From the NCBI RefSeq assembly GCF_003991155.1, contig NZ_CP031295.1: 64,000 nt of DNA. One strand, given 5' to 3'. The DNA is from Escherichia coli. Its GTDB lineage: Bacteria; Pseudomonadota; Gammaproteobacteria; Enterobacterales; Enterobacteriaceae. Of this stretch, positions 35,332-58,671 are shown one piece after another (positions within the stretch are counted from its first letter, which is position 1; the number at the start of each line of letters is the position of its first letter). Position numbers and translations under genes: made by a program. The notes beneath the pieces were generated by a model that saw only the letters and a list, made by a program, of their open reading frames with translations, did no database searches and was not told the DNA's origin.

Positions 35332-35346
35332 GGTAATGACTCCAAC

Positions 35347-35850
35347 TTATTGATAGTGTTTTATGTTCAGATAATGCCCGATGACTTTGTCATGCAGCTC
35401 CACCGATTTTGAAAACGACAGCGACTTCCGTCCCAGCCGTGCCAGGTGCTGCCTCAGATTCAGGTTATGCCGCTCAATTCGCTGCGTATATCGCTTGCTG
35501 ATTACGTGCAGCTTTCCCTTCAGGCGGGATTCATACAGCGGCCAGCCATCCGTCATCCATATCACCACGTCAAAGGGTGACAGCAGGCTCATAAGACGCC
35601 CCAGCGTCGCCATAGTGCGTTCACCGAATACGTGCGCAACAACCGTCTTCCGGAGCCTGTCATACGCGTAAAACAGCCAGCGCTGGCGCGATTTAGCCCC
35701 GACGTATCCCCACTGTTCGTCCATTTCCGCGCAGACGATGACGTCACTGCCCGGCTGTATGCGCGAGGTTACCGACTGCGGCCTGAGTTTTTTAAATGGC
35801 GGAAAATCGTGTTGAGGCCAACGCCCATAATGCGGGCGGTTGCCCGGCAT
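35347..35850 (-). CDS. insB: IS1 InsB (expressed as InsAB' by frameshift)
   Basis: 167-aa InsB frame. Confidence 0.9.
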
Positions 35851-36044
35851 CCAACGCCATTCATGGCCATATCAATGATTTTCTGGTGCGTACCGGGTTG
35901 AGAAGCGGTGTAAGTGAACTGCAGTTGCCATGTTTTACGGCAATGAGAGCAGAGATAGCGCTGATGTCCGGCGGTGCTTTTGCCGTTACGCACCACTCCG
36001 TCAGTAGCTGAACAGGAGGGACAGCTGATAGAAACAGAAGCCAC
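35769..36044 (-). CDS. insA: IS1 InsA
   Basis: 91-aa InsA. Confidence 0.9.
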
Positions 36045-36129
36045 TGGAGCACCTCAAAAACACCATCATACACTAAATCAGTAAGTTGGCAGCATCACCA
36101 GAAGGTCTTATCCTCTTTCATCTGATGAG

Positions 36130-36771
36130 GTATTAATTCCTTTTTCCCCACATGCAAGATGTTTTTTTCCGGATAAAACTAATAAATTATCAATTATAAA
36201 TAAACAAAATATTATCAATGCAACATGGAAAATAGCCAGAAAAAAACAAAATTGTATTATAAAGGAATCTTTTTCACCTAAATTTGAAAAAACTCGCCGA
36301 AATGAAATCCAGAGATTTATCAGGAATGGCGGAGAGATTAAGTGTATAAGCCAGTTATCCGATAAAGAAATATCCAGCTCTTATATATCACTTTTTCATT
36401 CCCGGTTTGGAGGTACCCTACCTTGCTACGAATATGATAATCTGTTAATGTTTATTTCTCACTTACGAGAACTTATGTTTGGCCATGTGCTATTCTGGGA
36501 TAATAAACCGTGTGCTATTGATATAGTACTGAAATCTGAAAGCTCATGTAATGTTTATTATGACGTTCCAAATGGTGCAGTTCTGAATGATGAGAATTGC
36601 ATGAAACTAAGTCCGGGAAGTGTCCTTATGTGGCTGAATATAGATAAAGCGCGAAGGTATTGTCAGGATAATAATAAAAAGATGATATATTCTATCGGTG
36701 CATTCAGACCTGAATGGAAATATAAACTACTATGGTCTGTTCCCTGTAAGGTTGGTAAATGCTTATGTTAG
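36130..36771 (+). pseudogene. disrupted gene fragment, possibly Mig-14-like
   Basis: Frames 36290-36440 and 36448-36771 form a continuous protein-like translation with one frameshift; N-terminus lost at IS1; family assignment from memory only. Confidence 0.25.
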
Positions 36772-37453
36772 AATATGTATAAAGGTAAGTAACTATATAA
36801 GAGCGTCCAGTCTGCAAATACTCCTCTAAACATGGAGGAGTAGATTTATAATATCATAACATTTACTAAATCGTTTTACATTAATTTCAAATTTGAAATT
36901 AATGTATTTTGATAACTATATATTTTTGATTCCGAAAACAGACATTTCTTTCTTTGAGTCAGGGCTTACACTCAAAATATTAATATTGTTTGTGTGAAGA
37001 CATATTATTCAATAACGATGGTGAGAAATATCTGTACTTTTTCGCATAATCTAACCATTTACTTAATTGTTCATTCTGTGAACAGAATCTGTTTGTTATG
37101 TATCAGGTTGATGATGTGATTAAGCAGTCTGAAACCAGAGGAATATGGAGTCAGAAATTTTCAGTTGTCTTTTAAGGGCGTCTGCAGGATTTTTTCTCCG
37201 TTTCTGCCTGTCCTGGCATTACCCCAATTCTCCCAAAAACGGTAAACCAGCCCTCAGCCCGCACCATGACTGGCTTAAGACGGGATCCCAGCGGCAAAAT
37301 GCGCCTTTATGTATTTGGTTTTACCCGCAATAATGCGTGATAATCAAACAAAAGGATCCGCGCGCTGCGATTTATTGTCGTGGAAGGATCCGGGCGTTCA
37401 GGTCAGAATACCTGTATCCATAAACAGTGCGTGTGCTACGTGAAAAATAACTC

Positions 37454-38194
37454 ATGAACAATGTCATTCCCCTGCAGAATTCACCTGAACGCGTCTCCCT
37501 GTTACCCATTGCGCCGGGGGTGGATTTTGCAACAGCGCTCTCCCTGAGAAGAATGGCCACTTCCACGGGGGCCACACCGGCCTACCTGCTGGCCCCGGAA
37601 GTGAGTGCCCTTCTCTTCTATATGCCGGATCAGCGTCACCATATGCTGTTCGCCACCCTCTGGAATACCGGAATGCGTATTGGCGAAGCCCGGATGCTGA
37701 CGCCGGAATCATTTGACCTGAATGGAGTAAGACCGTTTGTGCGGATCCTGTCCGAAAAAGTGCGTGCGCGACGCGGACGCCCGCCAAAAGATGAAGTGCG
37801 CCTGGTTCCGCTGACAGATATAAGCTATGTCAGGCAGATGGAAAGCTGGATGATCACCACCCGGCCCCGTCGTCGTGAACCATTATGGGCCGTGACCGAC
37901 GAAACCATGCGCAACTGGCTGAAGCAGGCTGTCAGACGGGCCGAAGCTGACGGAGTACACTTTTCGATTCCGGTCACACCACACACCTTCCGGCACAGCT
38001 ATATCATGCACATGCTCTATCACCGCCAGCCCCGGAAAGTCATCCAGGCACTGGTTGGTCACAGGGATCCACGTTCGATGGAGGTTTATACCAGAGTGTT
38101 TGCACTGGATATGGCTGCCACGCTGGCAGTGCCTTTCACAGGTGACGGGCGGGATGCTGCGGAGATCCTGCGTACACTGCCTCCCCTGAGGTGA
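37454..38194 (+). CDS. resD: ResD tyrosine recombinase (plasmid multimer resolvase, F D-protein)
   Basis: [73 protein letters not shown]... matches recalled F ResD. Confidence 0.9.
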
Positions 38195-38199
38195 CGGCA

Positions 38200-57190: not shown

Positions 57191-57262
57191 CCGGTATTCC
57201 TTTACAACAAAGGTACGCTGATATCAACATGGCCGCTGACAGCCAAGTTGATATCATATAAT

Positions 57263-57324
57263 ACACGACATAATCTGTAGTCAGGGAGGATAGACTCTTT
57301 ACTGACTACAGATTATGTCGTGTT
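57263..57324. repeat. 22-bp perfect inverted repeat with RepFIB-iteron-like core
   Basis: ACACGACATAATCTGTAGTCAG ... CTGACTACAGATTATGTCGTGT; core CTGTAGTCAG also occurs in RepFIB iterons. Confidence 0.5.
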
Positions 57325-57674
57325 CCGTGCTCATTTCCTCAAAAAAATACAAGAAAAGAATTAGTATTCTAACAAAAAGTGAAATAAATTGTATCAAACT
57401 CCCTCTTTTAATCCTGTTGAGTAAATCAGCTTTTGCAATAGGATTGAAAGAGTGTAAGTGGAATCTCTTCCGGATACTCGTTACCACCGTGGCTAGAATA
57501 TCTACGGCTGCGGGCCAGTAATAGATTAAGTGATAACAGCTGTCTGGAAATGTAGGGGCGTATCCACTAATCATAATCATTGTGAGATAAATATTACGGG
57601 GCATTTTATAATGAATAAAGGTGATGCTGCCAACTTACTGATTTAGTGTATGATGGTGTTTTTGAGGTGCTCCA

Positions 57675-57950
57675 GTGGCTTCTGTTTCTATCAGCTGTCC
57701 CTCCTGTTCAGCTACTGACGGGGTGGTGCGTAACGGCAAAAGCACCGCCGGACATCAGCGCTATCTCTGCTCTCACTGCCGTAAAACATGGCAACTGCAG
57801 TTCACTTACACCGCTTCTCAACCCGGTACGCACCAGAAAATCATTGATATGGCCATGAATGGCGTTGGATGCCGGGCAACTGCACGCATTATGGGCGTTA
57901 GCCTCAACACGATTTTACGTCACTTAAAAAACTCAGGCCGCAGTCGGTAA
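57675..57950 (+). CDS. insA: IS1 InsA
   Basis: 91-aa InsA variant. Confidence 0.9.
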
Positions 57951-57994
57951 CCTCGCGCATACAGCCGGGCAGTGACGTCATCGTCTGCGCGGAA

Positions 57995-58372
57995 ATGGAC
58001 GAACAGTGGGGATACGTCGGGGCTAAATCGCGCCAGCGCTGGCTGTTTTACGCGTATGACAGGCTCCGGAAGACGGTTGTTGCGCACGTATTCGGTGAAC
58101 GCACTATGGCGACGCTGGGGCGTCTTATGAGCCTGCTGTCACCCTTTGACGTGGTGATATGGATGACGGATGGCTGGCCGCTGTATGAATCCCGCCTGAA
58201 GGGAAAGCTGCACGTAATCAGCAAGCGATATACGCAGCGAATTGAGCGGCATAACCTGAATCTGAGGCAGCACCTGGCACGGCTGGGACGGAAGTCGCTG
58301 TCGTTCTCAAAATCGGTGGAGCTGCATGACAAAGTCATCGGGCATTATCTGAACATAAAACACTATCAATAA
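57995..58372 (+). CDS. insB: IS1 InsB (ATG-initiated portion)
   Basis: InsB frame; full protein produced via InsAB' frameshift. Confidence 0.85.
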
Positions 58373-58671
58373 GTTGGAGTCATTACCGCCTTGACCATCA
58401 GATAGTTATTTTGGTGCTAGGGATACTGAGTGTGAACAGTTAGCGCGCGTCCTCGCCAGTTAGCTCGCTACGCTCGGTTACACGACGGCTACGAGTACTA
58501 GTGATAATTATTGACTGAGGTATGTGCTCTTCCTGTTTCCTTTTTTGATGTGTTGCTCTCATTTTAAACAACTTTGCGGTTTTTTGACTACTTTGCAATT
58601 TTGTTGTTGCTTTGCAATAAAATGCAAGATTAAATGAAAATATGCAAAGCAATGATTAAAGGATGTTCAGA

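Follow-up and report, generated by a model that had tools for sequence, protein, structure and literature searches.

IS1 copies and their flanks

We examined the copies of insertion sequence 1 (IS1) in a 64,000-nucleotide stretch of Escherichia coli DNA (contig NZ_CP031295.1 of assembly GCF_003991155.1; the window, below), which is part of an IncF (FII/FIC-FIB) virulence-resistance plasmid of the ColBM/ColV type and a sibling of pCREC-544_1. Its central portion reads cvi-cvaC'-IS1-Δmig-14-int-RepFIB-IS1-sitABCD-iucABCD-iutA-IS1-sopABC; these three complete IS1 copies are termed A, B and C from left to right, and a fragment of a fourth lies closer to the left end (Table 1). We consider it likely that all are long-resident elements at the seams of a mosaic plasmid, and that the 8-9-bp target duplications are missing because each copy had at least one flank replaced after it inserted.

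In IS1, insA and the overlapping insB are joined by a -1 frameshift at an A6C site to give the InsAB' transposase. Copies A, B and C each encode an InsA of 91 aa, carry the A6C site at nt 307 and have an open -1 frame to nt 753; the NCBIfam profile transpos_IS1 (NF033558) is matched with E values of 7e-42 and 3e-26, and by sequence reading all three are coding-competent. Each has the 768-bp length of the element (PMC12428005) and imperfect terminal inverted repeats of about 23-30 bp, the left (IRL) and right (IRR) repeats being GGTGATGCTGCCAACTTACTGAT and GGTAATGACTCCAACTTATTGAT in all three. Pairwise, the three differ at 6-11 positions. A and B are direct repeats on the minus strand, and C is inverted relative to both; the fragment is oriented as C.

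A sequence-only reading of this DNA had placed and oriented the copies correctly, which a re-check of the sequence bore out, with some details to amend. Its distance of 5.3 kb between the direct repeats A and B is the gap (5,270 bp) and not the repeat period, which is 6,038 bp from start to start. The interval between them was said to enclose resD and RepFIB; RepFIB is there, but the recombinase beside it is int, and the homologue of F resD lies outside, at 30858-31649. The IS1 fragment does not run to 4133 but ends at 4130, and a Tn2/Tn3 terminal repeat, GGGGTCTGACGC, starts at 4131.

IS1 usually transposes replicatively and generates duplications of 8 or 9 bp (PMC12428005). Such a duplication is the mark of a fresh insertion, not of IS1 identity, and its absence is the mark of rearranged flanks. 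None of A, B and C is bounded by a direct duplication of 8-9 bp. With either IS1 end moved as far as 6 nt and duplications of 7-12 nt admitted, no exact duplication appeared at any of the three, the best case having two mismatches in 7; the sequence-only claim that duplications are lacking thus survives realignment of the ends, which gave no matching 9-bp pair. Apparent extensions of the IS1 repeats by 4-5 nt were dismissed as chance matches (3/5 and 3/4).

The same reading had proposed comparing flanks pairwise to rebuild ancestral junctions. For this we gathered the flanks of all IS1 termini of the window and of seven related plasmids, 12 distinct ones on the IRL side and 9 on the IRR side; the scope of the comparison includes simple insertion, inversion-insertion, cointegrate formation and reciprocal recombination. 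Among all combinations of IRL-side with IRR-side flanks in this set, at lengths of 7-12 nt, none paired, and no ancestral junction could be rebuilt in this way. Nor is a partner IS1 hidden beyond the window, because the complete sibling pCREC-544_1 carries only the same four copies and no other IS1 beyond the part that corresponds to the window. Reciprocal exchange between the copies now present is thus no explanation for the junctions. Two other candidate leads on flank ancestry were rejected: a 13-bp match that BLAST seemed to show between the left flanks of B and of the pEcQE11-421-1 IS1 proved to be only partial similarity, and the F plasmid cannot serve as the IS1-free ancestor of the flanks, since its homology consists of pif, int-RepFIB and sopABC, breaks off 60 bp before C and extends to the flanks of neither A nor B.

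Table 1. Features of the window, in left-to-right order; flanks are the 9 bp to the left and right of each IS1 on the + strand
Feature	Coordinates	Strand	Description	Flanks (left / right)
IncFII RepA	319-1191
IS1 fragment	3658-4130	+	473 bp, nt 1-473, IRL end; cut by Tn2/Tn3 terminal repeat at 4131	TGAAGTTCC /
cvaC'	35133-35331	+	colicin V gene ending after codon 66 at the IRR end of A; MRTLT...AMSPSG
IS1 copy A	35332-36099	-	768 bp, complete, IS1B-type allele	CATCCGGTT / AGAAGGTCT
Δmig-14	36100-36771	+	residues 78-298 of 298; NCBIfam NF011840, E 2e-132, profile 78-298
RepFIB-linked tyrosine recombinase int	37454-38194	+	DNA 96.9% identical to region beside F RepFIB
RepFIB replication initiator gene	38479-39456	-	96.9% DNA identity to F RepFIB region; RepB-family initiator in pTREC1 and pCREC-544_1 annotation
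umuC 3' remnant	40816-41205	+	residues 301-422 of 422; NCBIfam NF002955, E 3e-62; left of B
IS1 copy B	41370-42137	-	768 bp, complete, IS1A-type allele; left boundary of sit-iuc module	GAAAAAGCA / GATCCCTTC
sitABCD - crcB - MFS transporter gene (shiF-like, minus strand) - iucABCD - iutA	42438-57190	+	open reading frames; annotation of identical pTREC1/pCREC-544_1 sequence
IS1 copy C	57620-58387	+	768 bp, complete, IS1SD allele; right boundary of sit-iuc module	ATGAATAAA / GCCTTGACC
sopA, sopB, sopC (12 x 43-bp repeats)	58663-61415	+	right of C; F homology begins 60 bp right of C

Distribution and history of the junctions

Each IS1 joins unrelated modules: A connects cvaC codon 66 to mig-14 codon 78, B the umuC 3' remnant to the region upstream of sitA, and C the region downstream of iutA to that upstream of sopA. 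The junctions, each IS1 being taken with 400 bp of both flanks, were searched against 72,556 plasmid records (PLSDB); the window's own record is absent from the collections searched. The RepFIB side-IS1-sitA junction pair is observed in 849 plasmid records, iutA-IS1-sopA in 274, and the scar pemK-IS1 fragment-Tn2 in 1,343, Klebsiella included. The cvaC gene is intact in 385 of 602 matching records, and the remaining ~217 mostly end at residue 66, i.e. at the cvaC/IS1 junction; a simple IS1 insertion in cvaC with both halves retained would give a two-piece match, and none was seen among the 40 matches listed, evenly sampled from the 602. Against these hundreds, the IS1/mig-14 junction was found in one of the plasmid records and in one of 5,426 complete E. 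coli genomes, pCREC-544_1 both times. Because of this difference, we take six of the seven junctions as inherited and shared, and only IS1/mig-14 as recent. The B, C and fragment junctions are old and have been passed on unaltered to hundreds of plasmids. The missing duplications are, with the exception of IS1/mig-14, inherited scars of a well-known plasmid family and not the result of recent rearrangement; IS1/mig-14 itself is a specific marker of the pCREC-544_1 lineage and could serve in epidemiological tracking.

For copy A, intermediates are observed among sequenced plasmids. In the intact ColV plasmid pN18EC0432-2, cvaC continues as TAGGGGGAAC and is followed by cvaB, cvaA, a toxin-antitoxin pair, a 3-deoxy-D-arabino-heptulosonate 7-phosphate (DAHP) synthase gene and iroN, without IS1. 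In p13P484A-2 exactly 7,390 bp of this stretch, starting at cvaC codon 67 and stopping ahead of iroN, have given way to an IS1, and a second IS1 in the same orientation (A2) follows 20 kb onward, before ompT. The next plasmid, pTREC1, is p13P484A-2 without the 20,254 bp (iro, iss) that separate the direct copies; its IS1 is flanked on the left as A and on the right as A2, which marks it as the product of a deletion between direct repeats, and the pattern of single-nucleotide polymorphisms (SNPs) puts the crossover within the first 156 nt. The window in turn is pTREC1 without another 6,040 bp, which adjoined the IRL end of A and held IS3, ompT, hlyF and the mig-14 5' end. One further difference between the two intermediates is a group II intron (ltrA) just right of A2 in p13P484A-2 (NZ_CP019282.1, 26709-28972) that is absent from pTREC1.

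At the right-hand junction of A, one end is fixed at the IS1 terminus and the other endpoint is unique. No record among the 72,556 plasmids and 5,426 E. coli genomes has an IS1 at this mig-14 breakpoint in another context, and for this reason we read the 6,040-bp step as a probable one-ended, transposase-mediated adjacent deletion. Other IS1 IRL ends occur 111 and 596 bp off in mig-14/hlyF (pUTME-8-2, pEcQE11-421-1 and pI66), with different left flanks; the mig-14/hlyF region appears to have been trimmed repeatedly from IS1 termini. Copy A thus probably passed through three steps: (i) IS1 took the place of the DNA from cvaC codon 67 to a point ahead of iroN; (ii) recombination with the second direct IS1 deleted iro and iss; and (iii) the adjacent deletion from the IRL end produced the present junction. 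Some 33.7 kb of virulence genes lost stepwise on one IS1 makes a tidy example of IS1 trimming ColV-type plasmids while their resistance regions grow.

The sit-iuc iron-uptake module occupies the 15.5 kb between the inverted copies B and C, whose IRR ends face outward in a bracket resembling a composite transposon. The outer flanks of this bracket, GAAAAAGCA and GCCTTGACC, differ and thus form no target duplication; the IS1-flanked sit-iuc block of pEC302/04 was likewise reported without duplication (PMC4707298), and the same article cites experiments in which the pColV-K30 aerobactin region proved mobile. We built the junctions that an inverted module should have and queried them against the plasmid records; inversion isomers, suggested earlier from the sequence, do occur in nature. 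RepFIB side-IS1-iutA is present in 63 records and sitA-IS1-sopA in two; in p537-20_1 (NZ_CP091535), one of two exact cases, the B-C segment is inverted precisely at the IS1 boundaries, and in pS88 the inverted module keeps the same RepFIB-side flank with a different right-hand partner. Since matching flanks arise in neither orientation, inversion alone is not the cause of the missing duplications. The product expected from deletion between A and B (cvaC'-IS1-sitA, RepFIB lost) has zero plasmid records.

Next to iutA, plasmids vary in where the IRL end of IS1 lies: relative to the window, at +41 bp (pS88, and NZ_CP026940, which keeps the sopA flank), at 0 (the window) and at -105 bp (pSal8934b and others), a series suggestive of gradual trimming that starts from a fixed IS1 end. 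In their SNP patterns, the IS1 alleles are mosaics of one another. Copy C differs from its pCREC-544_1 counterpart at five SNPs within 180 nt (57884-58063), with more than 10 kb identical on each side, and matches the IS1SD allele, widespread on chromosomes and plasmids, at 100% identity. Because the patch lies within IS1 and the surroundings are identical, the resident copy was gene-converted by another IS1 copy, with flanks untouched and without rearrangement. That the sit-iuc segment might be actively flipping, with both orientations mixed within single cultures, we regard as a long shot; if it were so, there would be consequences for expression or conflicts with replication from the adjacent RepFIB origin, and the ~13:1 orientation skew (849 versus 63 records) would reflect selection and not ancestry. 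Literature searches for inversion isomers or the mig-14 deletion turned up no description of either, and only the pEC302/04 statement on absent duplications was found.

Competing accounts of the missing duplications

Classical IS1 adjacent deletions have one endpoint fixed at an IS1 terminus and the other variable; the IS1 is kept and no duplication is left. Two processes, both familiar from IS1, probably account together for what is seen at the window's seams. In the first, the IS1 transposase would make a one-ended adjacent deletion by intramolecular transposition, in which the element stays and the DNA from one of its termini to a new target is removed. The second would be homologous recombination between IS1 copies, deleting between direct copies, inverting between inverted ones and converting alleles. 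The enzyme that we assign to each step, transposase or RecA, is judged from end products and is to that extent provisional.

The sequence-only reading had attributed all the junctions to recombination between IS1 copies and not to simple insertion. No junction is in fact a simple insertion, and recombination between copies has clearly been at work, in the A x A2 deletion of the pTREC1 type, the exact B-C inversion of p537-20_1, the mosaic SNP patterns and the converted allele of C. That homologous recombination between pre-existing IS1 copies made every present junction, without any transposase-mediated deletion, is nevertheless unlikely in our judgement: the 12 IRL-side and 9 IRR-side flanks give no match, the sibling plasmid has no other IS1, undoing the B-C inversion restores no duplication, and the right-hand junction of A, with a breakpoint at which IS1 is in no other context among the records, has the signature of an adjacent deletion. 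Nested endpoints on one fixed IRL terminus are seen at hlyF/mig-14, towards iutA and, 1,375 bp apart, towards pemK, and recombination alone would need many independent, now-lost IS1 insertions to produce them. These nested series and the IS1/mig-14 junction are better explained by IS1-adjacent deletions, which matter at least as much here as recombination between IS1 copies.

Two further accounts fare worse. B, the sit-iuc genes and C could have inserted as a unit, as a composite transposon whose duplication was later lost; the copies are inverted, with IRR ends outward, and coding-competent, which speaks for it. Yet the outer flanks differ and lie in unrelated contexts (the umuC remnant by RepFIB and the region upstream of sopA), the pS88 module keeps its RepFIB-side flank with a different partner on the other side, and pEC302/04 is likewise without duplication (PMC4707298), which together make a single insertion very improbable. 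We give still less credence to an artefact, whether misassembly across the 768-bp repeats or misplaced IS1 ends. IS1 repeats are a classic source of assembly error, and the full inversion isomer is known from two records only; but the IS1 ends are canonical and were checked with offsets, all junctions except the right-hand one of A recur in 274-1,343 independent records, and that one is exactly reproduced in the independently sequenced pCREC-544_1.

Long-resident copies with flanks replaced after insertion thus remain our preferred reading, against which several points weigh. An apparent IS1-adjacent deletion could also be recombination with a transient IS1 insertion kept in no sequenced plasmid. 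For copy A the order of the second and third steps is assumed, and the same junction would result if an ancestor like p13P484A-2 had undergone a single 28.6-kb deletion. Our reading gives no account of how the junctions of B and C began, the first steps of B, C and the fragment being no longer recoverable, and some of the isomers in the databases could be assembly errors across the 768-bp repeats. The overall structure is ordinary and already known, namely the IS1-bounded RepFIB and sit-aerobactin mosaic of ColV/ColBM-type plasmids. The result is therefore mainly housekeeping: the missing duplications are real, and their lack around sit-iuc was already in print (PMC4707298).

Plasmid context and known systems

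From left to right the window carries FII repA, pemIK, the IS1 fragment, Tn2/IS26 debris with tet(A) and aph(3')-Ia, the pif genes, a resD-like gene, cmi, cma, cbi, cvi, cvaC' (to codon 66) and IS1 A; then mig-14 without its first 77 codons, int, RepFIB, remnants of an IS21-family transposase gene and of umuC, and IS1 B; and lastly sitABCD, crcB, a major facilitator superfamily (MFS) transporter gene, iucABCD, iutA, IS1 C, sopA, sopB and sopC. Its assignment to the ColBM/ColV type draws on the RepFIB and FII/FIC replicons, the colicin genes (cma, cmi, cbi, cvi and the cvaC remnant), and the sit and aerobactin operons; RepFIB, sit, iuc, iutA and the colicin genes were identified by 99.9% identity to the annotated pTREC1 and pCREC-544_1. 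The full set of the lineage (iroBCDEN, iss, ompT, hlyF and an intact mig-14) is not present in the window; p13P484A-2 has these genes, which are deleted here.

Several smaller features were noted along the way. Between RepFIB and B, at 40202-41205, the umuC remnant is preceded by a remnant of an IS21-family transposase (N-terminal 104 residues), so that B, too, has a patchwork on its left. A perfect inverted repeat at 57263-57322, about 70 bp beyond the end of iutA, has arms of 22 nt (ACACGACATAATCTGTAGTCAG ... CTGACTACAGATTATGTCGTGT) and is possibly a terminator. The twelve tandem 43-bp repeats downstream of sopB (60900-61415, 91% matches) are the sopC centromere of the F-type partition system. 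A repeat of ~115 nt occurs in inverted orientation between pemK and the IS1 fragment (3497-3605) and upstream of cvi (34533-34641), with 87% identity between the two copies; it may represent the terminus of some further mobile element. The resistance region (4131-15339) contains IS26 copies at 4723-5542, 12321-13140 and 14520-15339 and a partial IS26 at 13141-13479, and its cargo comprises a Tn2 tnpA remnant, Tn3-family transposase fragments, tetR-tet(A) (7375-9330) and aph(3')-Ia (13617-14432). The 3' end of a Tn3-family tnpA (4164-4769) is itself cut by IS26.

The closest relative is pCREC-544_1 (NZ_CP024827.1), which has all seven IS1 junctions in common with the window and is 99.93% identical to it over the virulence region. 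Unlike the window, it has an IS100 (IS21 family) in the pifA/pif region, where the window is uninterrupted (26606-26611), and a far larger resistance region with blaCTX-M-55, dfrA14, sul2, strAB, catA2 and blaTEM-1. Of the 90 differences between the two, 64 fall in the leading region, on the ssb/psiB side (62000-64000), which suggests a recombination patch from another F-type plasmid. pTREC1 (NZ_MN158989.1) has six of the seven junctions and, unlike the window, keeps the 6,040 bp with IS3, ompT, hlyF and the 5' end of mig-14.

Among better-known systems, the R100/NR1-type plasmids have an IS1 beside pemIK, where it bounds the resistance determinant. The window's fragment lies on the pemK side and is oriented as the complete IS1 of the R100-like pSal8934b, but is 1,375 bp nearer to pemK and is cut at nt 473 by Tn2. 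The classical IS1 adjacent deletions are matched by the endpoint series of the window and its relatives, those at hlyF/mig-14, towards iutA and towards pemK alike; they were selected in the laboratory, whereas those proposed here would be their counterparts among natural variants. In pColV-K30, pAPEC-O1-ColBM, pS88 and pEC302/04, as in the window, inverted IS1 copies bracket sitABCD-iucABCD-iutA beside RepFIB, and the lack of an outer-flank duplication at this IS1-flanked aerobactin region, stated for pEC302/04 (PMC4707298), holds for the window as well. At B and C nothing substantial separates these ColV/ColBM relatives from the window, except that copy C is of the IS1A type in its closest relatives and IS1SD in the window.

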